Positions 1 through 54,215 of a DNA stretch of 64,000 bases are shown piece after piece. The position numbers and the translations under genes are program-made. The notes under the pieces are model-generated. The model made no database searches. It was not told the DNA's origin and saw nothing but the letters and a program-made list of their open reading frames with translations. This DNA is from an uncultured Candidatus Saccharibacteria bacterium (GTDB taxonomy: Bacteria > Patescibacteriota > Saccharimonadia > Saccharimonadales > UBA10212): NCBI GenBank assembly GCA_964460855.1, contig CAYWQH010000004.1:39015-103014 (forward strand). The letters are read 5' to 3'. Numbering within the stretch: the first letter of the stretch is position 1; every line of letters begins with the position of its first letter.

Positions 1-2326
1 TAACGTAGCCGAAATGAAAACCGGCGAAGGTAAAACGCTGGTGGCCACGCTGGCCATGTATTTGAACGCCCTGGAAGGCAAAGGCGCCCACCTGGTGACG
101 GTTAACGATTACCTGGCACAACGCGATGCCGGCTGGATGGGCCAGGTATACGACTATTTAAACCTTAGCTGCGGCGTTATTATCCCCGATGAGTCATATA
201 TATATGACCCGGAGTTCGAAAACAAAGACCATATCGACCCGCGTTTCCAACACTTGCGGCCGTGCAGCCGCCAAGAGGCCTACCAGGCCGACATTACTTA
301 TGGCACCAACAACGAATTCGGCTTTGACTACTTGCGCGACAACATGGTGCGCGAAACCGACCAGCTTCGCCAGCGGGCGCTGCACTACGCTATCGTTGAC
401 GAAGTAGACTCGATATTAATCGACGAAGCCCGCACGCCGCTGATTATTTCGGCCCCGGCCACGGCCAGTGGCGCGGCCTATAACCAGTTCGCCAAAATCG
501 TCCGCCAGCTTAAAAAAGAAGAGCACTACACCGTAGACGAAAAACGCCGCGAAGTGGCCTTAACCGACGAAGGCATCGACCGGGTCGAAAAAATCCTGGG
601 CGTCGAAAACCTATACTCCACCGAAAATATCCGCACGCTGTACCACCTCGACCAATCGCTGAAAGCCCAGGCGCTGTTCCACCGCGATAAAGACTATGTT
701 GTTACCAGCGACGGCGAAGTGGTAATTGTCGACGACTTTACCGGCCGCCTGCTAAAAGGCCGGCGCTATAACGAAGGCCTGCACCAAGCTATCGAAGCCA
801 AAGAAGGCGTAGAAGTACAAGAAGAATCAATGACGCTGGCTACTATCAGCTTCCAAAACCTTTTCCGCCTATACGACAAGCTGTCAGGCATGACTGGAAC
901 GGCCATGACCGAAAGCGAAGAATTCCACCAAATTTATAAAATTGACGTAGTAGAAATACCGCCCAACCGCAAAATCGTGCGCAAAGACCTGCCGGACCGG
1001 ATTTATAAAACCGAGAAGGGCAAAATTGCGGCCATTGCCAAGGATGTTAAAGCTATGCACGCTAAAGGCCAGCCGGTTTTAATCGGTACAGTCAGCGTCG
1101 AAAAGAACGAACTAATTTCGGCCGCTTTAAAGAAGGCCGGCGTGCCGCACGAAATACTTAACGCCAAAAATAACGAACGCGAAGCCGTCATTGTCTCTAA
1201 AGCCGGCCAAAAAGGCGCCGTTACCCTGGCTACCAACATTGCCGGCCGCGGAACCGACATTGTTTTAGGCGAAGACGTCAAGAAAGAACTCGGCGGCCTA
1301 TTCGTTTTGGGCAGCGAACGCCACGAATCGCGGCGCATCGACAACCAGCTGCGCGGCCGGGCCGGGCGCCAGGGCGACCCGGGCGGCACCCAGTTTTACG
1401 TATCTTGCGAAGACGAGCTGATGCGGGTATTCGGCGGCGACCGTATTAAATCGATTATGGAACGCCTGCAAGTAGACGACGAAACGCCAATAGAAAACCG
1501 AGTGATCAGCCGCAGCCTGGAAGGCGCCCAAAAGAAAGTAGAAGGCTTCAATTTTGATACCCGCAAAAACGTCGTTAAGTACGACGACGTCATGAACCGC
1601 CACCGCCGCGCTATATACTCCTTGCGCAAAGAAATCCTCAACCAGGCCGAAATTACCAACCGCGTCAAAACATTTATTCAAGAAGAGGCAACTTTTTTCG
1701 CCAACCATCCGGACTCAACCAGCGAAGAATTCGAATCGATGTTAACCGATGTATTTCCGCTGGATGATAAGACATTAGACAAGTTATTTGATACCGAAGC
1801 GTCTAAATTCGAGGCCGAACTGGCCAAAGCCGGCGAAAAATTATATAGCGAAAAAGAAGAATCTTTCGGCGCCGAAACCATGCGCAAAATCGAGCGCGAC
1901 ATATATTTACAGATATTGGATAACTTATGGATGCAGCATTTGGAAAACATGGACCATTTGCGCCAAGGTATCCACTGGGTGGGCGTCGGACAGCGCGACC
2001 CGCTGGTAGAATACCGCCGCCAGGGCCAAAAGCTTTTTGATACTTTCCAGGAAACACTGCGCCACGACATTATCCGGACTATCTTCCACGCCCAGCCGGT
2101 AGACATACAACGGCTCGACCAGGCCATTGATACCGAACTGACCAGGGCAGCCCAATCTTCCGTAGACAACGCCGATTCGATAACCAGGGCAGAGCACTTC
2201 GACGAAAGTGACTTCAGCCCCAAAAAAATCGCCGTGGAAGTTAAAAAGAGCCAGAATACCGTCCGCAAAAAAGCCCGCAAAGCCGAACGGCAGCGCCGCG
2301 CCGCCGCTAAAAAGCGCCGTAAGTAG
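1..2326 (+). CDS. secA: Preprotein translocase ATPase SecA (5' end cut by window edge)
   Basis: The ORF is open to the window start. Motifs VAEMKTGEGKT (Walker A) and TNIAGRGTDI are present. The tail is Lys/Arg-rich and no terminal Cys-rich Zn motif is seen. Confidence 0.97.
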   Translation, partial: NVAEMKTGEGKTLVATLAMYLNALEGKGAHLVTVNDYLAQRDAGWMGQVYDYLNLSCGVIIPDESYIYDPEFENKDHIDPRFQHLRPCSRQEAYQADITYGTNNEFGFDYLRDNMVRETDQLRQRALHYAIVDEVDSILIDEARTPLIISAPATASGAAYNQFAKIVRQLKKEEHYTVDEKRREVALTDEGIDRVEKILGVENLYSTENIRTLYHLDQSLKAQALFHRDKDYVVTSDGEVVIVDDFTGRLLKGRRYNEGLHQAIEAKEGVEVQEESMTLATISFQNLFRLYDKLSGMTGTAMTESEEFHQIYKIDVVEIPPNRKIVRKDLPDRIYKTEKGKIAAIAKDVKAMHAKGQPVLIGTVSVEKNELISAALKKAGVPHEILNAKNNEREAVIVSKAGQKGAVTLATNIAGRGTDIVLGEDVKKELGGLFVLGSERHESRRIDNQLRGRAGRQGDPGGTQFYVSCEDELMRVFGGDRIKSIMERLQVDDETPIENRVISRSLEGAQKKVEGFNFDTRKNVVKYDDVMNRHRRAIYSLRKEILNQAEITNRVKTFIQEEATFFANHPDSTSEEFESMLTDVFPLDDKTLDKLFDTEASKFEAELAKAGEKLYSEKEESFGAETMRKIERDIYLQILDNLWMQHLENMDHLRQGIHWVGVGQRDPLVEYRRQGQKLFDTFQETLRHDIIRTIFHAQPVDIQRLDQAIDTELTRAAQSSVDNADSITRAEHFDESDFSPKKIAVEVKKSQNTVRKKARKAERQRRAAAKKRRK

Positions 2327-7889: not shown

Positions 7890-9134
7890 TTGTCCGCAAA
7901 AAAAGAAATACCTGTTGACCCGACTGCCCAAAACCAAAGCAGCCAGCTCAGCAGCCGCAATATATATGTAAAAATACTGGTGTTAGTATTAATTTTTGCC
8001 GCCGGTTATATTTTGGGCCATGGTAAGTGGCAATTGGGCAGTAATTTCGCCTCCAGCAACAAGAACTTGCCCAACTCGCTGGATTATTCATCCGTAAATG
8101 ACGCTTATAACATTTTAAAGCGCGATTATGACGGCCAGTTATCGCAAGATCAGATTCTGGACGGCCTTAAAGAGGGCCTGGCCAAAGCCACCGGCGACCC
8201 TTATACAGAGTATTTCAACAAAGCTGACGCCCAGGGATTTAACGACCAATTGACCGGTTCGTTCGAAGGTATTGGCGCCGAACTCGGCAAAGACAGCAGC
8301 GACAATATCATAATCGTCTCGCCGCTGGCCGGCTTTCCAGCCGACAAAGCCGGGCTGCGACCCAAGGATATTATTTACAAGATTAATGACAAACCGACAA
8401 CCGGTATGACCATTAATGACGCGGTAAAACAAATCCGCGGGCCTAAAGGTACCAGCGTTAAGCTTACGATAGTGCGCGGCACCCAAAGCCCGCTCGAAAT
8501 CAACGTTACCCGCGATACAATTTCGATACCCAGCGTAACCAGCAAAATAGACGGCAACGTCGGCTACTTAAAAATCAGCCAATTCGGCAACGATACCGTA
8601 GATCTTGCCCAAAAAGCGGCCGCCGATTTTAAGGCCAAAGGCGTTAAAGCAGTGGTGCTGGACTTACGTAATAACCCCGGCGGTTACCTCGACGGGGCCG
8701 TAGACGTATCGAGCCTATGGCTTAACCCCAACCAAAAAGTGGTTTCCGAAAAACGGGGCAGTACAACGATTGATACTAAATATGCCCGGGGCACGGCAAC
8801 ACTAGCCGGATTGCCTACGGTAGTGCTCATTAACGACGGCAGCGCCAGTGCCAGCGAAATTACCGCCGGCGCCCTAAAAGATAACGGCGCGGCCACTTTG
8901 CTGGGCATAAAAAGCTTCGGCAAAGGCAGCGTCCAGCAGGTTGAGCAATTAGCCGGCGGGGCAGAGATAAAAGTTACCATCGCCCGCTGGTATACGCCGG
9001 CCGGTAAGAATATCGATAAAGCCGGCATCACCCCGGATGTTGTTATCCAATTATCGGACGACGATATTAAAAACAGCCGCGACCCGCAAAAAGATAAGGC
9101 CTACGAAATTCTCAACCAAAAAATCGGCGGCTAA
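7890..9134 (+). CDS. ctpA: C-terminal processing (S41, PDZ-containing) peptidase
   Basis: TTG start after a GAGGGG SD. N-terminal TM anchor, a PDZ-like region, and S41 core motifs (NPGGYL, GSASASEI). Confidence 0.85.
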   Translation: MSAKKEIPVDPTAQNQSSQLSSRNIYVKILVLVLIFAAGYILGHGKWQLGSNFASSNKNLPNSLDYSSVNDAYNILKRDYDGQLSQDQILDGLKEGLAKATGDPYTEYFNKADAQGFNDQLTGSFEGIGAELGKDSSDNIIIVSPLAGFPADKAGLRPKDIIYKINDKPTTGMTINDAVKQIRGPKGTSVKLTIVRGTQSPLEINVTRDTISIPSVTSKIDGNVGYLKISQFGNDTVDLAQKAAADFKAKGVKAVVLDLRNNPGGYLDGAVDVSSLWLNPNQKVVSEKRGSTTIDTKYARGTATLAGLPTVVLINDGSASASEITAGALKDNGAATLLGIKSFGKGSVQQVEQLAGGAEIKVTIARWYTPAGKNIDKAGITPDVVIQLSDDDIKNSRDPQKDKAYEILNQKIGG

Positions 9135-10849: not shown

Positions 10850-11446
10850 ATGGATACAGATCAGCCACACGATAACGCCGGCGACCCAATGCCAGCCAAC
10901 CCGCAGCCGGCAGCGCCCCAGCCAACCGAACTTCCAGGTGCTAACGGCGACCATATGCTGCCGCCCGACCAGGAACACCACGACCAGCCGCCAGCCGCGC
11001 AACCGGCCGCGCCCGCTAACCAGTTTGCCGAACCAATGCCCACGCCTCCGCCGGCAGCGCCAGCCAAAAGCGGCGGCCAAAAGAAAATTCTACTAGTCGA
11101 AGACGACGACGCATTGGCAAACGTTTATCAAATGCGCCTGGAGAACGAAGGCTTTGATATCCGCCGTGTGCCAAATGGCGAAGATGCCTTGCAGGCAGCC
11201 ATCGAATACAAACCGGACTTAATCCTGCTGGATGTTATGATGCCCAAAGTCAGCGGTTTTGACGTGCTCGATATCTTACGAAATACCCCCGAAACAGCCA
11301 AAGTTAAAGTTGTTATGCTAACCGCTTTGAGCCAGGAAACCGACCAGCAGCGCGCCAAAGAACTCGGCGTTAATGATTACTTGGTGAAATCCCAAGTTGT
11401 CATTGCCGACGTCGTCGACCGAATCAAATACAACCTTGGCATGTAA
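10850..11446 (+). CDS. Receiver-only response regulator with Pro/Gln-rich N-terminal extension
   Basis: ATG 10850 is preferred over the track TTG 10814, which overlaps pyrG. About 85 aa of low complexity is followed by a REC domain (VEDDD, DLILLDVMMP, conserved K). There is no output domain. Confidence 0.8.
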   Translation: MDTDQPHDNAGDPMPANPQPAAPQPTELPGANGDHMLPPDQEHHDQPPAAQPAAPANQFAEPMPTPPPAAPAKSGGQKKILLVEDDDALANVYQMRLENEGFDIRRVPNGEDALQAAIEYKPDLILLDVMMPKVSGFDVLDILRNTPETAKVKVVMLTALSQETDQQRAKELGVNDYLVKSQVVIADVVDRIKYNLGM

Positions 11447-11633
11447 CAAACCAACAGCAATCTCGGGACGATACGAAAACTAGAAGTTCGCTCAATCATA
11501 AAAGCAGGTGAAGCTGCGGAACTCGCAGCCTTTTATAGATTGAACTGCTCAAACATCCTCGCTTCTGCCAGCTTTTATAATTTCACTCTCTCTGTTTTCT
11601 CAAGTCCCTCGAAACGCTGTTGGTTTGTTACAT
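11441..11633. repeat. Long imperfect-palindrome element, copy 1
   Basis: A perfect 18-bp outer stem pairs 11441-11458 with 11616-11633. Inner arms are partly complementary. Core blocks GCTGCGGAACTCGC (11513-11526) and CTCAAACATCCTCGC (11548-11562) are shared with 62391-62560. Confidence 0.7.
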
Positions 11634-11663
11634 TAAATAACTAAAATGCGTTTAATACGTAAC

Positions 11664-11999
11664 TTAACCACTGAAACCGAAGTTAAACCAGCCGGCAATT
11701 GCACCAATAATAAATGCAGCAATAAGGGCAACAAATGGTACTGCCAGGTTAAGATATTTATTGCTTTTCTTTTGAATAAACAGGCCGCTACTGATAAAAA
11801 TCGCCGAAACCAAAATCACCATATTGTGGTCTCTATTTAGAAGTTGTTGGTTAAAATCGTAAGCGTTGCCATGGTAAACCAAATAATAATTATCTCCCCG
11901 CAAGAACCATAAAACACCGTTGTGGCTACCCTCTAAAATTATTAGCAATAAAGGAAGGGCAATGCCTATGGCTAGCAAAGTCCAGCCAAAATACTTCAT
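11664..11999 (-). CDS. Small multi-pass membrane protein, AT-rich, unknown function
   Basis: Three to four hydrophobic segments. ATG 11999 is preferred over the track TTG 12005. TATAGT ends 7 nt upstream of the ATG. Confidence 0.5.
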   Translation of the reverse strand: MKYFGWTLLAIGIALPLLLIILEGSHNGVLWFLRGDNYYLVYHGNAYDFNQQLLNRDHNMVILVSAIFISSGLFIQKKSNKYLNLAVPFVALIAAFIIGAIAGWFNFGFSG

Positions 12000-12042
12000 A
12001 GCCAAAACTATACTATAGCGTTAGCGTGTTGTACATTTACGG

Positions 12043-36226: not shown

Positions 36227-38905
36227 TTAGCGGAGCTTAATTTCGTGCTCGCCGGAAGTCATTTGGTTAGTCTTAACAGGGGTAATAACCTGCCCTGCCG
36301 GGGCAGTGTCTGCAGATTTATTCTTGCGCCGGCGCGAGCGCGAGCGTTTGCGCTTGGGCTTGTCGGCGTCCTGGTTGGCCGGGGCTGGCTGTTGCTGTTG
36401 GCTTGGCTTATGGTCTTCGGCGGCCCTCATTATCAGGCTGGCGGCGCCTTGCAGTTTATTCGGCGAATTAGCTGCGGTCCGCTGTGCAGCGGGGGTGGCC
36501 GGTTGGTTGGCTTCGATCTTTTTTAAGTCTTTGGCGGTAGTCATGCTGGGCCTTTGGGGTGGTTTTTGGGCGGAGTTTACATTCGGGGTGTGGGTTTGGC
36601 GGATAATGTCTTCTACCACCGACCGGTCCTGGGAGTAGCGTTCGCGGCTTAAGCGGATGATTTCGGCAGTATGGTCGGCCGGCGCCGGCGGTATTTGCAG
36701 CGTTTTGGCCGAAAATGCCGGGGCTTTTTCGCCGTGGATCATCATGGTAGTTACGAAAAAGCGGCTGTGCTGCTGGATTAAGTCGCCGGCTTCGAATTGC
36801 GGCTCAAAGTATTTTTGCAAAAACGGGGCGTCATCGGGGCTGATCCTGAAACAAACTATAGAGCCGACATTACCGAACACGGCATTTCGGACCGGCTCGC
36901 TCATCTGTGATATATACTGGTTGGCTACCGTTAAGTTGAGGGCGTATTTACGGGCTTCGCTTAAAATAACGGCGAACGAATCGGTAGCGAAGTTCTGGAA
37001 TTCATCGACGTACAAGTAAAACGGCCGGCGCTGGTCTTCGGGCACATCGGCACGGCTCATAGCCGACAGCTGGATTTTGGTAACCATTAAGGCGCCCAAA
37101 ATGGCAGCATTATCTTCGCCCACCAGTCCGCGGCTTAAGTTGACGATCAATATTTTGCCCTCGTCCATGATTTTACGGATATTAAACGTGCCCTTGGGCT
37201 GGCCGATAATGTTGCGGATCATCGGGTTGGCCGTAAATGCCCCCACTTTGTTTAATACCGGCGCCACGGCTTCGGTGGCAAACTTCTCGTTCCAGCTGGC
37301 GAACTCGGTAATCCAAAAGTTTTTAACTACCGGGTCGTCGATATAGCTTATGACGTCGTTTCTAAAGGCTTTTTCGGTTAACATACGGGTTATGTCCAAC
37401 ATCGTGGAGTTCGGGTAGTCCAGCAGCGCCAGGAGCGTGTAGCGCAGGATGTATTCCAGCCGCGGCCCCCAGCTTTCGAACATCCGCTTCATAACACCTA
37501 CAATTTCCGAGCTAATATGGTTTTTGAGTGTCGGGTCGGTTACTTCCAGCGGATTAAAGCCAACCGGGTAAGCGCCGTCGGACGGGTTAAAGTAAACGAC
37601 GTCATCGATCCTTCTTTCGGGAATGAACGATAAGATGTGCTGGGCGTAGTCGCCGTGGGGGTCGATTACCGCGAAACCCTGGTCGTAATAAATATCCGAT
37701 AAGGTCAGCAGCTCCAAAGCACCGGATTTACCAGTACCGGTTTGGCCGAGGATGTATATATGGCGGCTGCGGTCCGAGCGGTAAACGCCGTATATGGTGT
37801 TATCGCCGCGGAAATTAGTCACGCCAAACAGGCTGATGTCGGATTCGGCGCCCGGCACTTGCACCGGTATATTGGGCGGCGGTTCGGCCGTTTTGGTTGT
37901 GGCCCACACTATATTAGGGGTTTCCACGGAGGTATGCGGCAGGTGGAAAAGGCTAGCCAGCTCTTCGATATTTAAAATAAAACCGTGGTCGATAAAGAAG
38001 CGGGCCTGGTATTCGATTTGTTTGTCGCGGCCATACGACGGTGACTTAGAAGTAAAACCATTTAAATTGGTAGTATTGTACTGCTTAAAGGCGCCCACCA
38101 TGGCTTGCATCCTTAACCGGGCAGTCGGCTGGTCGTGGCCAGCGTATAAAATCCTGATTTTAACCTGGTAGCCTAGCTTGGTGCTCTTCTCTTCTATGGC
38201 CGAGATGCGGGTTTTATCGCGGTCGCTTAAATCCGGCGCGCCGGTAGCCGTGGCCGAGGCTTCCGGCGGTTTTACCAGGGCGGCGATCATCTGGCCGGTA
38301 AATTGCAGGGTGGCTCCCCCCGCCCCGCTAAAGATGCTGCCTTTGCCCGATTTAATTTTGCTTATCATCTTGGCGCCGCGCTTATGCCAGTCGTCGCCGA
38401 TCGGCCGGGCCATGATCTGGATCCAAACTTCTTCGTCGTCTTTGTCCAGTTTGGCTAAAGTAGCAGTGATGGCCGCCAAGGGGTCAACTTCGAAGCTAGG
38501 GAAAGTTTTAATTGGCAGGGTTTCGTTATCAGTAAGAGCCAGCTCGGCCGTGTGTATTATGCTTTGGCTGAGCTTGCGCTCGGCGTAATCTTCGGTTTGC
38601 TCATATATCTGTACCGTCGGGTATTGGGCGTAAATTTGGCCCTCAACGAAAGGCTGTAAGTGTTTGGGCGTCCATATATAAAACCGGATGCGTTGGCCAA
38701 TGGCGGCAATTTCCAGGCTGATATGTTCTTGCAAATGCCCGGAACTTTTAATCTCCCGTTTGGTCCGCAAAATACCGTGCAAGGCAGCCAGCATTTGTTC
38801 GGCGGCCAATTCTTTTTTATCATTGGCCCGCGGTATTTCAAGCATTAGCAAACAGTGCTCGTGTGAAGCACCGCTTGTTTGACGCTTGTTACCTAATATG
38901 CCCAT
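36227..38905 (-). CDS. Soluble VirD4/TraD(TrwB)-like P-loop ATPase with large N-terminal domain and basic tail
   Basis: Walker A GQTGTGKSG and Walker B FYLYVDEFQNF, with T4CP-like downstream motifs (TVANQY). No N-terminal TM helices. The C-terminal ~140 aa are Pro/Lys/Arg-rich (KPKRKRSRSRRRKNK). Confidence 0.8.
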   Translation of the reverse strand: MGILGNKRQTSGASHEHCLLMLEIPRANDKKELAAEQMLAALHGILRTKREIKSSGHLQEHISLEIAAIGQRIRFYIWTPKHLQPFVEGQIYAQYPTVQIYEQTEDYAERKLSQSIIHTAELALTDNETLPIKTFPSFEVDPLAAITATLAKLDKDDEEVWIQIMARPIGDDWHKRGAKMISKIKSGKGSIFSGAGGATLQFTGQMIAALVKPPEASATATGAPDLSDRDKTRISAIEEKSTKLGYQVKIRILYAGHDQPTARLRMQAMVGAFKQYNTTNLNGFTSKSPSYGRDKQIEYQARFFIDHGFILNIEELASLFHLPHTSVETPNIVWATTKTAEPPPNIPVQVPGAESDISLFGVTNFRGDNTIYGVYRSDRSRHIYILGQTGTGKSGALELLTLSDIYYDQGFAVIDPHGDYAQHILSFIPERRIDDVVYFNPSDGAYPVGFNPLEVTDPTLKNHISSEIVGVMKRMFESWGPRLEYILRYTLLALLDYPNSTMLDITRMLTEKAFRNDVISYIDDPVVKNFWITEFASWNEKFATEAVAPVLNKVGAFTANPMIRNIIGQPKGTFNIRKIMDEGKILIVNLSRGLVGEDNAAILGALMVTKIQLSAMSRADVPEDQRRPFYLYVDEFQNFATDSFAVILSEARKYALNLTVANQYISQMSEPVRNAVFGNVGSIVCFRISPDDAPFLQKYFEPQFEAGDLIQQHSRFFVTTMMIHGEKAPAFSAKTLQIPPAPADHTAEIIRLSRERYSQDRSVVEDIIRQTHTPNVNSAQKPPQRPSMTTAKDLKKIEANQPATPAAQRTAANSPNKLQGAASLIMRAAEDHKPSQQQQPAPANQDADKPKRKRSRSRRRKNKSADTAPAGQVITPVKTNQMTSGEHEIKLR

Positions 38906-38977
38906 ATAAGTTCTCTTTAAAACACAAAAAGCCCCTGTTTAGAGGAGCTTTCGTGTTTAATTATACTACGCTGCTGC

Positions 38978-40015
38978 TTATTCAGCTAGGGCGTAAGTAG
39001 CTTTGGCTACCCGTTTGAACTGCGGTTTGCCTTGTAAATTTAAAAGGATAGTCGTTTCTTTAACCTGGCGCTTTTTAAGCACCCGCTTGACGATTTCGTC
39101 GCGGTGCAGCGGACCGTTTTCTTTGCGCAATACATCGGCGATAACATCGGCGACCGTGCCCTTGGAATAGCCCCATTCGCGCAGGGCGTAAATACCGCGG
39201 CCGATAAGTACGAACCGTTTGTCCTTGATAAGTTCGTTATGGATAGCCTGCGTGGTTACGTCTTTGCGGCGGAAGTCGCTGCCTTTAATGGCATCGGAAA
39301 TTTCGTTAAAGTGCATCGGTTTGCCCTTTTCGCTCAAAATAACGTAAATTTTATCGCGGATATTTTTAGGGTTAACCAGCGGCCACTTTACCAAACCCCA
39401 GCGGCCATTTAAGGTGGCGATATTCTTGGAAATGCCGGCTAGCGCCTGCACGTGTTTAGGGTCGGTATGGTTGATGCGCTGCCGGATGGTATCGATATCC
39501 GTAGGCTGGCCAATAGCTTTTATAGCTTCGATTATGCGGTTAACGAAGTCGCGGATTGCTTTTTCGGTATGGTCGGCGGCAATGCCGACGGCGTGGAAAA
39601 AGTGGTCGTTATCGTCAATTAAGGCAATATTCGGGCTTAGCTGTGCCAGGAATGCAACCCTGGCCTGGTTGATTTTGCTATTATCATCGGTGATTTTAGC
39701 GGTCAGTTCACTTATTCGGGCCACTTTGCCCATCTCGTTTAAATAGCCGATTAATATATCGTCTACCTCTTGCATATGGGGCAAATCGGTAGTGGCGCTG
39801 GCTTTTAGCTTGGCGACAGCCGCTTTTTCCAGCTGGCGGACCCGCTCGCGGGTAATATTAAGCAACTCGCCGATCTGTTCGAGAGTTTCTTTGCGTTCGA
39901 ACAAGCCAAACCGGCGGGCGACAATTTCGCGCTCGCGTTCCCGGTCGATGGTAGCTAAGACGTCATTAATAACCTGTTCCAGGTTGAGTTGGCGCGTTGC
40001 TTCAGCTTGTTCCAT
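38978..40015 (-). CDS. Sigma-70 region-4-like HTH fused to two HARE-HTH-like winged-helix modules
   Basis: The N-terminus EIVARRFGL...TLEQIGELLNITRERVRQLEKAAVAKLK is a region 4.2 pattern. Two later segments resemble the RpoE-delta/HARE-HTH type (KPMHFNEISDAI, GPLHRDEIVKRV). Confidence 0.6.
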   Translation of the reverse strand: MEQAEATRQLNLEQVINDVLATIDREREREIVARRFGLFERKETLEQIGELLNITRERVRQLEKAAVAKLKASATTDLPHMQEVDDILIGYLNEMGKVARISELTAKITDDNSKINQARVAFLAQLSPNIALIDDNDHFFHAVGIAADHTEKAIRDFVNRIIEAIKAIGQPTDIDTIRQRINHTDPKHVQALAGISKNIATLNGRWGLVKWPLVNPKNIRDKIYVILSEKGKPMHFNEISDAIKGSDFRRKDVTTQAIHNELIKDKRFVLIGRGIYALREWGYSKGTVADVIADVLRKENGPLHRDEIVKRVLKKRQVKETTILLNLQGKPQFKRVAKATYALAE

Positions 40016-42542: not shown

Positions 42543-43412
42543 TTAAGCCGCCAGCGTCCAGTGGCCGGCCCCCAGTGGTTTTATATGGCCTTTTATTTCT
42601 AGCTGGGTCAGCAGCGAATAAAATTGGGCCGGCGGCAGCTGGCAGGCCTGGGCGATTAATTGCTGGTCGCTTATGCCCCCGCGCAAGGCCTCCACAACTG
42701 CTTGTTCGTCTTTGGATAAGCCGGCAATAGCCAGCAATTTGGTTTGCTTTGGCAGTGGCACGCCCAAGGCAAATAGCAGTTCTGTCTCGTTAGTAATCGG
42801 AGTAGCGCCGCTTTTTATAAGGTTATTGCAGCCTTCGCTGCCCGGCTGGTCGATGTTGCCTGGTACGGCTAAAACGCTTTTGCCCAGCTCCAGGGCGAAG
42901 CGGGCGGTGTGCAAGCTGCCACTTTTTAAGGCGGCTTCGGTTATTAAAACGCAGTCCGCCAGGGCGGCCATTATGCGGTTGCGGGCAATAAAAGAAGTTT
43001 TATATATTTCGCTGCCCTCGGGGTACTCGCTTACCAGGCTGCCGCCGCTTTGCAATATTTGCCGCGATAGCCCGTAATGGCTGGCCGGGTAAATATTATC
43101 CAAAGCTGCCGGCAAAACTGCTACGGTTTGGCCGCCGGCGTTGATACAGGCCTGGTGGGCGATTGAGTCTATGCCAAGCGCCAGCCCGCTGATAATTACC
43201 ACCCCGGCCCGGCTGGCTGCCGCCGCTAATTTTTCGGTTGCCGCCCGCCCGTAGCGGCTGGCTTTACGGCTGCCCACCACAGCCAATTTCGGCTTATCGG
43301 CCCACTCTTCGTAGCCGGCGCCCTCAATGTATATCTGGCGCGGCGGCTGAGGCAAATACGTCAGAGGTAACGGCAAGATATCCCCGGTAAGCTTAAGAGT
43401 ATTGACAATCAT
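42543..43412 (-). CDS. dprA: DNA-processing protein DprA
   Basis: Rossmann-like core GLALGIDSIAHQ and a C-terminal winged helix. The dprA-topA adjacency is classic. Confidence 0.9.
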   Translation of the reverse strand: MIVNTLKLTGDILPLPLTYLPQPPRQIYIEGAGYEEWADKPKLAVVGSRKASRYGRAATEKLAAAASRAGVVIISGLALGIDSIAHQACINAGGQTVAVLPAALDNIYPASHYGLSRQILQSGGSLVSEYPEGSEIYKTSFIARNRIMAALADCVLITEAALKSGSLHTARFALELGKSVLAVPGNIDQPGSEGCNNLIKSGATPITNETELLFALGVPLPKQTKLLAIAGLSKDEQAVVEALRGGISDQQLIAQACQLPPAQFYSLLTQLEIKGHIKPLGAGHWTLAA

Positions 43413-43431
43413 ACTATATTGTTACTTAGTA

Positions 43432-43460
43432 TTGACATAATGCCATGTTTTTGCTAAAAT
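43432..43460 (+). promoter_or_regulatory. Near-consensus sigma70-type promoter facing the gene-free region
   Basis: TTGACA (43432-43437), an exact 17-nt spacer, then TAAAAT (43455-43460). Confidence 0.6.
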
Positions 43461-43466
43461 GACAAT

Positions 43467-43822
43467 CCGTAAGCGTGATTATCGCGTTTTAGCACCTTAT
43501 ACCCCCAACTTTTCTAACTATTAGTTAGATTGTTTTAGAGCGAGCCACTGCAAGTTGTTACCCTCCACTTACTTTGGCGTCCGCTGGACTCGTCCGGCAA
43601 AGACGCTCTAAAACAAACTAACCCCTTTAACCACGCTCTTCCCCTCGTTTTATTTGAGTGTTAGGCAAGAGACGTCCAACCTTTGTGTGGGCCTGCAAGC
43701 ATTTTCTGCTAACAGGAAGGCCTTCAAGGTGGGTTGAAGGGTGTAATTTGGGCTTGAGCTTAAGTTCGAGCCCCAAAATGGCTTCCGGCGGTGCCCACCC
43801 CCTCCGGAAGCCTTTTTGGTTT
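43467..43822 (+). ncRNA. Candidate ~350-nt structured non-coding transcript (class unknown)
   Basis: Bounded by the promoter above and the terminator at 43780-43822. Contains a 12-bp stem (43531-43542/43604-43615) and hairpins at 43721-43740 and 43750-43773. No ORF has both an SD and a plausible sequence. Confidence 0.3.
43780..43822 (+). terminator. Intrinsic terminator
   Basis: GGCTTCCGG (43780-43788) pairs with CCGGAAGCC (43804-43812), followed by TTTTTGGTTT. Confidence 0.7.
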
Positions 43823-44048
43823 CATTAATAATATAAGCTAAGCAACTGGTGCCCACCCGCTCGTCATTTTCTGCTGAAAATGCTCGCAGGCCCGCCTCGG
43901 CGCCGTCGCGCCTGCGGCCTTGCGAGATACCCCCGGCATCTCTCACCCTCTGGTGGCTCTTTACATTTATGCACTATTAATTGGTTAATCGAACCACATC
44001 CCACATCACGCTACTCATGTTGCACTTAATTTATTACACGCTCCTAAA

Positions 44049-44077
44049 TTGCTTAATTATTTTTAAGCTGTTATAAA
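44049..44077 (+). promoter_or_regulatory. Promoter of mini-gene 1
   Basis: TTGCTT, 17 nt, TATAAA. Confidence 0.55.
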
Positions 44078-44130
44078 AGTGCGGTGTGGAAGCCTCCACG
44101 CAACCTTCACAACGCAACAGGAGCGGTGGC

Positions 44131-44373
44131 GTGATTAATTCGTTTACGTACTTTTTTGGACGTCTGCTCATCAACAAGTGGTTCCATGGCTGCTACTTGG
44201 CAGTCTGCTTCTGGATCGGCATCGCCTACCCCGGTGAGCTCAGCATGAAATTCATGCTGGAATCGTTCTTCGCCGGGGCCGCATTGCTGTTCGTCCTGGT
44301 CATCGTCGGCTACCGGCTGATGATCGCCAGCGAACGGTACACGCACAAGCGCTACGGGCCCGGGCTATGGTAG
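44131..44373 (+). CDS. Mini-gene 1: 80-aa predicted 2-TM peptide
   Basis: GTG 44131 lies 7 nt after AGGAG (44119-44123). The track start 44086 has no SD. Two hydrophobic helices and a basic tail (ERYTHKRYGPGLW). GC-rich third codon positions. The stop lies inside a GCCCGGGC/GCCCGGGC hairpin (44358-44390). Confidence 0.5.
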   Translation: MINSFTYFFGRLLINKWFHGCYLAVCFWIGIAYPGELSMKFMLESFFAGAALLFVLVIVGYRLMIASERYTHKRYGPGLW

Positions 44374-44425
44374 TAATACCACGCCCGGGCTTCGGCCCTC
44401 TCCTGTTGCGAAATTTATCCTGCTT

Positions 44426-44454
44426 TTGCTAATTACTTAATTTAATGTTATAAC
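44426..44454 (+). promoter_or_regulatory. Promoter of mini-gene 2
   Basis: TTGCTA, 17 nt, TATAAC. Confidence 0.55.
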
Positions 44455-44488
44455 TTTTGGGTCAACAGTTCGTTTTGCCGACGAGGTA

Positions 44489-44689
44489 ATGATGAGCGAT
44501 TCGGAAATGGGTAAGCGCGAGAGCGCAATCTGCTACATCTGCATTTGCGTTGCACTGCCCTTCGCACTGTTCGCGTGCGTAATGCGCAACTGGTCTCCCT
44601 ACGGGTTGATCGCGGCCGTATGCGTGCTGGTGGTGGCAGCAGTCATCGCGAAACCGCTGTGGCGGCCCACCCGCGAAGACACTAGCTAG
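44489..44689 (+). CDS. Mini-gene 2: 65-66-aa predicted 2-TM, Cys-rich peptide
   Basis: GAGG SD, then ATGATG (the start may be 44489 or 44492). Two hydrophobic helices. Followed by a perfect 13-bp hairpin at 44699-44730. Confidence 0.5.
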   Translation: MMSDSEMGKRESAICYICICVALPFALFACVMRNWSPYGLIAAVCVLVVAAVIAKPLWRPTREDTS

Positions 44690-44797
44690 AACTTGGTTGC
44701 GGTAGCGAGGGTTAGTTCCCTCGCTACCGCTCAGCCATCGGACTGTTGACACTTTTCAAAAGTAGCATCGGGTAAGGCAGTTTTTGAAAAGTAAGCA

Positions 44798-44826
44798 TTT
44801 ACAAAATAGTCAATTTATTGTAGAAT
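44798..44826 (+). promoter_or_regulatory. Promoter of mini-gene 3
   Basis: TTTACA, 17 nt, TAGAAT. Confidence 0.6.
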
Positions 44827-44861
44827 ATGCATTAAGTGTTGACCCGCATCTAAGGAGCAGA

Positions 44862-45080
44862 ATGCCCACCATCGTCTCAGTCGATACGATCGAGGCTATC
44901 CTGGCCCACAGACGCCGTCGCGGCCGCATCTACCGCTGGTGGTCCACAATCGGCTGGTACACCGCCGATGACAACCTGAGGAAGAAGCACCAGCGGCGAG
45001 TCGCAAGCCTGGAGGACGAGCGCCTACAGCTCGTTCTCGAGCACCGCCGCGCCGTCGACGAACGGTGTCAGCGCTATTAG
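44862..45080 (+). CDS. Mini-gene 3: 72-aa Arg-rich soluble peptide
   Basis: ATG 44862 lies 4 nt after AAGGAG (44852-44857). The track TTG 44784 would start upstream of the promoter. Sequence is HRRRRGRIYRWW followed by a helical Arg/Glu-rich C-terminus. The stop lies in the loop of an 11-bp hairpin (45065-45089). Confidence 0.5.
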   Translation: MPTIVSVDTIEAILAHRRRRGRIYRWWSTIGWYTADDNLRKKHQRRVASLEDERLQLVLEHRRAVDERCQRY

Positions 45081-45104
45081 CGCTGACACTGCCGCGAAAC
45101 ACTT

Positions 45105-45139
45105 GGGGCCCCGGAGAGATCCGGGGCCCCTTTTGCTTT
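45105..45139 (+). terminator. Intrinsic terminator shared with the 3' end of pth
   Basis: GGGGCCCCGG / CCGGGGCCCC form a perfect 10-bp stem followed by TTTTGCTTT. The pth stop codon (45138-45140, minus strand) lies in the T-tract. Confidence 0.75.
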
Positions 45140-45773
45140 ATAAAACAGACCTTGTGTCGTGGGGGAGTTCGCCCCCAAAGATGTATTCGGTTAGCATGGC
45201 GTTAATTTCGCCCAAAATCTTCCCCATTTCCCCCTGCTCCGCCTTGTTGAATTTATCTAATACAAACTTATCGGAATCAGTTTTGTCAGAGTGTTCATTA
45301 GATATGCCAACACGCAGTCGGCCGAAGTCCTCGCCCATATGCTCAATTAACGATTTTATGCCGTTATGGCCGGCGCTTTCGCCGCCTACCCTGGCCCGGA
45401 TCTGGCCAAACGGCAAAGCCAGCTCGTCGTGGACTACGACGGTCTCCGGGTTATAGACGCGATAATATCGCTGTAGCGCCCCAGCCGCCTGGCCGCTCAT
45501 ATTCATGAAAGTCAGCGGTTTGCATAAAATTACTTTTACCGGCCCCATCATCATGGAAGTTTCCAAACACTGGAGGTCCCTTTTTAAAACCCAGCCCGGA
45601 AAGTCATTTTTTTCGGCAAAACTGTCTAGCGCGGCAAACCCCAGGTTATGGCGGGTGCCGTCGTACTCCTCTCCTGGGTTGCCGAGGCCGATTATCAGGT
45701 ATGTTTTACCGCCGCCAACCGTATAGGCCGGCGCGCTGTTGCCTACTTCTACTCTTCGCTGCAATAATCCCAT
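45138..45773 (-). CDS. pth: Peptidyl-tRNA hydrolase
   Basis: YLIIGLGNPGEEYDGTRHNLGF and GHNGIKS. Confidence 0.93.
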   Translation of the reverse strand: MGLLQRRVEVGNSAPAYTVGGGKTYLIIGLGNPGEEYDGTRHNLGFAALDSFAEKNDFPGWVLKRDLQCLETSMMMGPVKVILCKPLTFMNMSGQAAGALQRYYRVYNPETVVVHDELALPFGQIRARVGGESAGHNGIKSLIEHMGEDFGRLRVGISNEHSDKTDSDKFVLDKFNKAEQGEMGKILGEINAMLTEYIFGGELPHDTRSVL

Positions 45774-54138: not shown

Positions 54139-54215
54139 TGGTGACCCCTGCGGGATTCGAACCCGCGATCTTCTGGATGAGAACCAGATATCCTGGACCA
54201 CTAGACGAAGGGGCC
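54139..54215 (-). tRNA. tRNA-Glu (anticodon CUC), CCA encoded
   Basis: The reverse complement is GGCCCCTTCGTCTAGTGGTCCAGGATATCTGGTTCTCATCCAGAAGATCGCGGGTTCGAATCCCGCAGGGGTCACCA. It folds as a cloverleaf with anticodon loop TT-CTC-AT and T-arm GCGGG-TTCGAAT-CCCGC. Confidence 0.93.

Follow-up and report, generated by a model that had tools for sequence, protein, structure and literature searches.

We analysed a 64,000-nt stretch of DNA (the window) from a member of the Saccharibacteria, ultra-small bacteria of the class Saccharimonadia (TM7; Candidate Phyla Radiation, CPR), placed via its DprA relatives, and in particular the gene-free interval 43413-44085, which is flanked by dprA and by a 95-aa open reading frame (ORF) without Pfam match. 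Comparison of homologous sequences makes it close to certain that positions 43432-43818 are the gene of a stand-alone structured non-coding RNA (ncRNA) that measures about 355 nt in the window, with a range of 247-495 nt elsewhere, and is conserved across the Saccharibacteria. This class-wide RNA matches no Rfam 15 family and looks like a new RNA class. A sequence-only reading of the window had proposed either a novel structured RNA, equipped with a promoter and a terminator and situated beside dprA, or a decayed palindromic insert. The RNA is supported by conservation and covariation. The insert is rejected for 43432-43818, which has one copy in the window and occupies the same position in 37 or more species. 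The checks suggested by that reading gave no family in an Rfam/Infernal scan, homologues at the same position next to dprA in related genomes, and strong covariation as judged by pair counting.

Homologues and transcription unit

The 38 loci closest to the window were collected with its DprA as query. Nearly all of them are from Candidatus Saccharibacteria / Saccharimonadales (L023 is labelled Babeliales and L004 Patescibacteria), and their DprA proteins are only 38-56% identical to that of the window. In contrast, positions 43417-43822 show ~70-80% nucleotide identity (blastn, nhmmer) in 30 species, directly upstream of dprA and on the opposite strand. Conservation is far stronger in the RNA element than in the flanking protein gene. 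Seven more distant Saccharibacteria (L032-L038) harbor a shorter form of ~250-340 nt at the same place, found by motif and position, which keeps the promoter type, the terminator loop GCCCACCC and a covarying version of the long-range helix described below. All 37 of the Saccharibacteria species whose dprA has enough space upstream carry the element (L014, which lacks this space, was excluded), and none of 42 non-Saccharibacteria dprA loci does. A metagenome scan with the pattern GGGTTGAAGGNT...GCCCACCC returned at least 120 contigs, nearly all with the full element, and metagenomes add at least ~85 copies among the matches listed. After removal of identical copies, the homologue set comprises 116 distinct sequences.

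The homologue profile (nhmmer) finds a single copy in the window, aligned at 43463-43823 with E = 1e-64. In the homologue alignment, conservation spans promoter to U-run and extends no further on either side. The TTGACA-17-TAAAAT promoter pointed out in the sequence-only reading matches the consensus at 11 of 12 positions, carries a TG, and is itself conserved: TTGAC[AT]-16..18-TAnnnT occurs in 120 of 120 homologues having upstream sequence, with a 17-nt spacer in 115 and the TG in 118. Such a consensus extended -10 promoter would be expected to drive high-level transcription. At the other end, every homologue has a run of 3-7 T after its terminal hairpin.

As had been noted from the letters of the window, the interval 43413-44085 contains no credible ORF; the overlapping ORFs of 56 and 98 aa are without Pfam match. 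The longest stop-free stretch is of 66 aa, compared to 65 aa in shuffled sequences, and the invariant blocks are separated by freely varying distances that do not come in multiples of three. We therefore regard the RNA as non-coding. With a conserved promoter of its own, an intrinsic terminator of its own and a non-coding body, the element is predicted from its sequence to be an independent small RNA (sRNA) or ncRNA gene.

The strand had been left ambiguous in the earlier reading. It is not: all homologues carry the promoter on the plus strand, and the G-U pairs of the helices would be A-C mismatches on the opposite one. In every helix, G-U cells are much more numerous than A-C cells, and the long-range helix holds an invariant U-G pair. 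The predicted fold of 43461-43830 on the plus strand has -131 kcal/mol, with z = -6.05 relative to dinucleotide shuffles (z = -4.9 for the minus strand).

Two copies carry labels from elsewhere. One full-length RNA copy comes from a contig in the IMG/VR viral collection (L207, IMGVR_UViG_3300049064_000004, 7973-8369); this contig probably belongs to Saccharibacteria, or is a region with a prophage, and was entered there as viral. Of the 7 viral-contig pattern matches, the remaining six were chance matches in unrelated sequence. L023 (DATIIZ010000048.1), labelled Candidatus Babeliales, has a Saccharibacteria-like dprA (53% identity) together with a full RNA copy, and this contig is probably mis-binned or mislabelled.

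Conserved helices, invariant blocks and alternative pairings

Structure statistics were obtained with RNAalifold and pair counts on a 31-species alignment and with per-helix counts on the 116 sequences, using nhmmer profiles and anchor-based counts. With the 31 species, RNAalifold recovers P3, P4 and the terminator stem (Table 1). In the pair count on the same alignment, 94.4% of cells are paired compared to 81.7% in shuffles, with 150 double-change cells (36.9 shuffled) and 23 pairs with double changes (14.6 shuffled); 0 of 500 shuffles reach the observed values. When the partners were slid by 1-3 columns as a control, at most 57% of cells were paired. By pair counting, compensatory changes go beyond what relatedness and composition give. 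In the resulting architecture, a 5′ domain composed of P1, P2 and the long P3 enclosing P3a is followed by a 3′ domain closed by P4 and then by the terminal hairpin.

Table 1. Positions in the window of the features of the RNA gene and of the module downstream of it (MFE, minimum free energy)
Feature	Position	Strand	Description
Promoter, sigma-70 type	43432-43460	+	TTGACA 43432-37, 17-nt spacer, TAAAAT 43455-60; 11/12 match; TGn extended -10, TG at 43452-53
Transcript (predicted)	~43467-43818	+	~355 nt; 5′ end from -10 position, 3′ end from U-run
P1, 5′ hairpin	43471-43489	+	AAGCGUGA / UCGCGUUU; MFE fold
C1	43492-43506	+	near-invariant single-stranded block GCACCUUAUACCCCC
P2, hairpin	43513-43529	+	UCUAAC/GUUAGA; contains palindrome CTAACTATTAGTTAG (43515-29); loop is insertion site in other species
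P3, stem	43531-43542 with 43604-43615	+	12 bp; repeat search extends it to 19 nt, 95% complementarity
P3a, hairpin inside P3	43552-43570	+	AAGU/ACUU; near-invariant C-rich loop UGUUACCCUCC; displays UACCCUCC
C2	43559-43568	+	near-invariant block UACCCUCCAC, in P3a
Junction	43616-43622	+	AACUAAC; CUAAC 43618-22 is second possible partner of GUUAG 43524-28
P4, long-range helix	43623-43632 with 43732-43741	+	10 bp; CCCUUUAACC with GGUUGAAGGG; also in window MFE fold
Variable hairpin within P4	43687-43722	+	GGGCCU / AGGCCU; MFE fold; mutual-information pairs 43693-95 with 43719-20
P7, optional hairpin	43750-43773	+	in 20/116 homologues; clade-specific insertion; two G-U pairs
Terminal hairpin and U-run (intrinsic terminator)	43780-43817	+	stem 43780-88 with 43804-12, plus 43790/91/93 with 43802/01/00
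Terminator loop	43794-43799	+	CCCACC (6 nt)
U-run	43813-43817	+	
Second module	43848-43965	+	starts with GGUGCCCAC, copy of terminator-loop motif; terminator-like end ...CACCCUCUGGUGGCUCUUU; holds 3′ arm 43873-93 of inverted repeat

Several elements of this fold had been picked out in the sequence-only reading. The palindrome (P2), the 12-bp stem with its inner stem (P3 and P3a) and the intrinsic terminator, with hairpin 43780-43812 and U-run 43813-17, are all present, conserved and covarying; the hairpin with two G-U pairs (P7) is present as a clade-specific covarying insertion. A hairpin at 43721-40 is also present as described. However, it does not belong to the conserved fold: it occurs only in the sub-clade of the window and competes with P4, whose 3′ strand uses its 3′ arm.

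In the 31 species, changes on both sides were found at 10 of 12 pairs of P3. Over the 116 sequences 91% of its cells are canonical (65% shuffled), with 378 double-change cells compared to 145. GUUUUAGAGC resembles a Cas9 repeat:anti-repeat, a likeness that we set aside, since the stem covaries freely, as with GCGUGCAACG in other species. For the terminator stem the corresponding values are 98% canonical (73% shuffled) and 281 double-change cells (88 shuffled). All 9 pairs of its main stem covary in the 116 sequences, as do 9 of 12 pairs of the terminal hairpin in the 31 species.

P4 is so named here only by analogy to RNase P. Over the 116 sequences 98.8% of its 1160 cells are canonical, compared to ~97.6% in shuffles. 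Double changes occupy 11 cells, spread over 3 positions, where 500 shuffles gave 0.45 on average and never more than 3; at a fourth position just one of the two strands varies. Covariation of P4 is seen in no fewer than four separate lineages. Its 5′ and 3′ strands are CCCUUUAAC and GUUGAAGGG in most homologues, CUCCUCAAC and GUUGAGGAG in L033 and L034, CUCCUUAAC and GUUAAGGAG in L037, CCCUAUAAC and GUUAUAGGG in L036, and GCCUUUAAC and GUUGAAGGC in five L025-type sequences.

P2 is canonical in 92.7% of cells (88.5-89.2% shuffled), with 14 double-change cells compared to ~3. On the sequence-only alignment, column counts are poor for P1, P3a and P7 as a consequence of register shifts. At the P1 position, homologues hold a hairpin of differing sequence, for which column counts are only moderate. 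P3a was tested again with an anchored per-sequence test: of 110 homologues, 108 have a closing stem in which 4 or all 5 pairs form; the variants include UAGU/ACUA, GCGU/ACGC, UCGU/ACGA and GAGU/GCUC. P7 shows compensatory changes between GGCUUGAG...UUCGAGCC and GGGAUGAG...CUCGUCCC. The variable hairpin within P4 is the window counterpart of P6, which in other clades pairs GYGRGY with GCUUCRC, one position showing UA, UG and CG with counts of 37, 37 and 24, respectively. In the window this hairpin also holds the 5′ arm of the inverted repeat described below.

Beyond the helices, the RNA carries blocks of nearly invariant sequence. These include C1 and C2, as well as AACUAACCCCUUUAAC and GGUGGGUUGAAGGGUG, which lie between helices. 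The terminator loop GCCCACCC, with its core CCCACC, is unchanged in 116 of 116 homologues; such constancy is unusual for the loop of a terminator hairpin. Of the 116 homologues, 111 have a GGUGG(G/A) motif somewhere between the 5′ strand of P4 and the terminal loop, and its location differs by clade. It lies beside P4 in the clade of the window, where GGUGGG (43728-33) sits just upstream of the P4 3′ strand and overlaps it; in the short forms, a GUGA...UCAC hairpin carries the motif in its loop. The CCCACC loop is complementary to GGUGGG, which suggests a putative tertiary docking contact.

Two strands have alternative partners. GUUAG (43524-28) can pair either with CUAAC 43514-18, in P2, or with CUAAC 43618-22; these pairings are mutually exclusive and both beat shuffles. 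The second would extend P3 and abut P4, with 76% canonical cells compared to 73% shuffled and 32 double-change cells compared to 12. Similarly, GGUUGAAGGG pairs either with C3, forming the covariation-supported P4, or with C1, and again one pairing excludes the other. Pairing of C1 with 43728-41 comprises 11 pairs, 97% canonical, with no covariation. On the 116 sequences RNAalifold favours C1 with G2/G3 over P4. We nevertheless retained P4, because the changes in the L025-type sequences, in L033/34 and in L037 are compensated in C3 and not in C1; the C1 pairing is possible as an alternative fold. As each of the two strands has two conserved and exclusive partners, the RNA may switch between folds, and the pattern is suggestive of a conformational switch. 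A pairing of CACC in C1 with GGUG was rejected, being uncompensated in L033, L034, L037 and L157.

Genomic slot and downstream module

dprA (42543-43412, minus strand; Pfam DNA_processg_A, E = 2e-65) is followed immediately by topA. On the 5′ side, the slot of the RNA gene is defined by topA-(dprA), divergent to it. Most loci have dprA as the divergent neighbour; the nine loci without dprA have topA in its place, and their RNA is intact. On the 3′ side come pth and then der, and pth converges on the RNA in 58 loci. The gap between pth and the RNA 3′ end is below 60 nt in 12 loci; downstream content varies otherwise. With divergent 5′ and convergent 3′ (pth-der) neighbours in this fixed slot, the RNA is neither a leader nor an untranslated region, and as pth converges on its 3′ end there is no downstream gene for leader-type control. 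A conserved gene in the same orientation downstream, as a riboswitch or cis-acting leader would have, was not found; the downstream neighbour in 58 loci is the convergent pth.

In the window, ~1.2 kb of short ORFs without Pfam matches lies between the RNA and pth (43966-45137), with ORFs at 44086-44373 (+), 44462-44752 (-), 44784-45080 (+) and 45103-45456 (+). Since pth is less than 60 nt from the RNA in 12 related loci, we consider this stretch a lineage-specific insertion.

A weaker promoter-like sequence, TTGTCA-17-CATTAT (9/12, with TG), runs on the opposite (minus) strand from 43465 to 43437 and aims at dprA. It overlaps the RNA promoter back to back, and the dprA start codon is 20 nt from the RNA -35 box; as judged from this arrangement, the RNA and dprA promoters may compete for polymerase. 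Beside topA, region 36227-40015 encodes an 892-aa HerA/TrwB/TraG-like coupling ATPase (type IV secretion) and a 345-aa protein uniting sigma-70 region 4 with a HARE-HTH domain. The cumulative GC skew reaches its minimum at ~11000-12000 and rises afterwards, so that a replication origin may lie there.

The 18-nt inverted repeat reported in the sequence-only reading is present and extends to 21 nt with 90% complementarity and 2 mismatches (43689-709 with 43873-93); 0 such matches were found in 100 shuffles. However, it does not bracket the RNA, as its 3′ arm lies past the terminator, in a separate downstream module and outside the transcript. A complementary 21-mer inside the RNA was found in the window only: L006 has the downstream arm without the internal one. 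Because the pair occurs only in the window, we regard the inverted repeat as a local peculiarity that does not belong to the family. Such an inverted duplication would suggest a recent local templated or gene-conversion event. The direct repeats of the same reading were found where they had been placed, yet for the 11-nt GGTGCCCACCC two matches compare with 1.24 expected, which is within chance alone.

The module that holds the 3′ arm ends in ...CACCCUCUGG(A/U)GGCUCUUU. It is common only to L006 (88% identity), L152/L114 (80%) and part of L115. RNAalifold on the five sequences gave hairpins with a few compensatory changes. The module is probably outside the core RNA. It may represent a tandem copy of part of the RNA 3′ end that has since diverged, an extension produced by read-through, or another small RNA.

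Proposed role and relation to known RNAs

To relate the element to known RNAs, the whole window was scanned with Rfam 15 (4227 models). At gathering thresholds only a tRNA at 54142-54215 was found. With E up to 10, applied to 43300-44200, to 18 homologue loci and to the divergent L033, no family recurs at the RNA; the permissive matches are scattered, far below threshold and mostly on terminator-like hairpins. The four housekeeping RNAs of which the sequence-only reading saw no signature (tmRNA, RNase P, SRP and 6S) were also negative by Rfam. ARAGORN detected a tRNA-Glu only and no tmRNA in the window. T-arm and CCACCA motifs of tmRNA are at chance level (9 and 2 of 116 homologues), with no tag reading frame preserved. 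The RNase P signatures CR-I (GAGGAAAGUCC) and CR-V (ACAGAA..GGCUUA) each occur in 1 of 116 homologues with 2-3 mismatches allowed. For SRP RNA there is no Rfam match, and a GGAAGCAGCC-like motif in 7 of 116 homologues with 2 mismatches is at chance level. For 6S RNA there is no RF00013 match, and the fold is multi-domain with separate terminal hairpins, not a rod with a closing stem: the 5′ and 3′ ends form P1 and the terminator and are unpaired with each other.

Taken together, these results point, with slightly more confidence than doubt, to a stable trans-acting RNA with a structural, protein-binding or catalytic role as the best explanation as a whole. Its mode of action is a guess. The RNA would be abundant, stable and compact, and would serve as a protein-binding scaffold or as a catalyst in a basic cellular process. 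Compaction would be brought about by P4 together with docking of the CCCACC loop on GGUGG(G/A), and the RNA would switch between folds in which GUUAG pairs with either CUAAC copy and GGUUGAAGGG with C3 or C1. We rate such a trans-acting role as more likely than a base-pairing regulator or a cis element. More doubtful is a stronger version, in which the RNA would be a universal and essential large-RNA class of Saccharibacteria, a ribozyme or ribonucleoprotein core replacing lost machinery, with two-fold switching locked by CCCACC-GGUGGG docking.

Several points weigh against our interpretation. The transcript ends are predicted solely from promoter and terminator sequence. The contact between the loop and GGUGGG, and the competition of C1 with C3, are beyond a covariation test because the nucleotides are invariant. 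A loop-loop pairing of GUGGG (G1) with UCCAC (C2), prompted by L017, was dropped in view of C-A mismatches in several sequences; the A-to-G change in C2 behind this idea is accounted for by the P3a stem, and G1 covaries with GCUUCRC (P6). The range outside Saccharibacteria was sampled via dprA synteny and one sequence pattern. Neighbouring genes point to no partner protein, target or chemistry for the RNA. Literature searches, of incomplete coverage, returned no description of a Saccharibacteria-specific ncRNA, and none was found in the Saccharibacteria genetics paper. Finally, C2 holds CCUCC, the anti-Shine-Dalgarno core, and divergent homologues have ACCUCC in C1, which would also fit the regulator considered next.

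C-rich-loop sRNAs such as RsaE/RoxS control translation at Shine-Dalgarno regions. By the same principle the C-rich elements of the RNA (the UACCCUCC loop, C1 and CCCACC) could pair in trans with mRNA Shine-Dalgarno regions and control translation. A promoter and intrinsic terminator of its own and conserved C-rich blocks in loops or single strands are in line with this, but we consider it unlikely: a length of 247-495 nt, long-range helices and many invariant positions take the RNA far beyond a typical base-pairing sRNA, C3 is paired intramolecularly as judged by covariation, and each C-rich block has an internal G-rich complement. Quite improbable, to about the same degree, are a housekeeping RNA and a cis-acting element. 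That the RNA is an extremely diverged or analogous RNase P RNA, tmRNA, 6S RNA or SRP RNA would fit its size, its class-wide conservation, its strong, constitutive-looking promoter and its pseudoknot-prone sequence, and none of the four was found elsewhere in the window by the Rfam gathering scan. CPR RNase P RNAs are known to fall below Rfam thresholds (PMC8172020). However, RF00010 found RNase P RNA in all 35 circular CPR genomes examined by Lui et al. 2021, two of them Saccharimonadia, after thresholds were lowered (PMC8172020), whereas here no model of these families appeared at E up to 10 in tiny search spaces with 20 homologues. The signature counts (1, 1, 9, 2 and 7 of 116 for CR-I, CR-V, T-arm, CCA and SRP domain IV) and the ARAGORN result argue in the same direction, and the unpaired ends are unlike those of RNase P (P1), tmRNA (acceptor stem) and 6S RNA (closing stem). 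A 6S-like function with a different shape is possible.

A leader or riboswitch for a downstream gene, or promoter or antisense control of dprA, could draw on the strands with alternative pairings that precede the terminator in a riboswitch-like manner, on dprA being the divergent neighbour in most loci, and on the overlapping 9/12 minus-strand site, through which transcription of the RNA and dprA could interfere. Yet the terminator stem takes no part in the alternative pairings, no Rfam riboswitch matches, no conserved downstream gene has the same orientation, pth being convergent and at less than 60 nt in 12 loci, and the RNA is intact in the nine loci where topA stands in for dprA. Hardly credible is a decayed palindromic insert, a mobile element of the MITE type (miniature inverted-repeat transposable element) or a missed short protein-coding gene. 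The 21-nt inverted repeat, which chance does not produce, the short direct repeats and the resemblance of the downstream module to a partial duplicate of the RNA 3′ end would favour an insert, and the 56- and 98-aa ORFs a gene. The element nevertheless has one copy in 64 kb and, in 37 of 37 species, one site and one orientation; the inverted repeat is specific to the window and does not lie at the element ends, one arm being outside the conserved part. As for coding, stop-free stretches are at shuffle level, frame is lost between blocks and the ORFs are without Pfam match.

New large and highly conserved bacterial RNAs are rare, and OLE, GOLLD, ROOL and raiA each opened structural and functional work. 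The genomes of Saccharibacteria, which are CPR epibionts, are of ~1 Mb and leave little space for dispensable genes. That nucleotides of the RNA are invariant in such genomes while proteins are at ~40-55% identity argues for a basic, possibly essential role of the trans-acting RNA proposed here. As the RNA is missing from Rfam 15, Rfam-based annotation likely leaves an empty intergenic region in its place. Its invariant blocks could act as a specific marker of the class Saccharimonadia. The RNA is directly testable in oral Saccharibacteria (N. lyticus TM7x, S. epibionticum), which are cultivable and naturally transformable and for which Tn-seq data exist (PMC10633639).

Compared with known systems, the RNA shares features with several classes. 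Like bacterial RNase P RNA, it falls in the range of ~250-500 nt, has a domain closed by a long-range helix, is conserved class-wide and carries variable peripheral helices; it differs in having no CR-I/CR-V, no RF00010/RF00011 match and no P1 pairing of its ends. With tmRNA it shares length, G-rich and C-rich complementary segments that suggest several pseudoknots, and a place adjoining pth, which is related to translation rescue. Unlike tmRNA, it is not detected by ARAGORN and has no acceptor or T-arm, no CCA end and no conserved tag frame. 6S and Ms1-type RNAs are likewise stand-alone, under a strong sigma-70 promoter and presumably abundant, whereas our RNA is no rod with paired ends and a central bubble, has no Rfam match and is twice the size of 6S. 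The RsaE/RoxS-type sRNAs also combine promoter and terminator with conserved C-rich loops complementary to Shine-Dalgarno-like G-rich sequence; the present RNA is 3-5 times longer, with long-range covarying helices and internal G-rich partners for its C-rich blocks.

The orphan ncRNAs (raiA motif RNA, OLE, ROOL, GOLLD, Bacteroidales-1 and Chloroflexi-1) form a further group for comparison. Of these, the raiA motif RNA likewise tends to lie near a competence gene, in its case comFC. The Saccharibacteria RNA differs from this group in its phylum (CPR), in having no Rfam 15 match at E up to 10, and in its intrinsic-terminator hairpin with an invariant loop. As in these RNAs, stand-alone organization, covarying long-range helices and invariant unpaired nucleotides are found together in one lineage.

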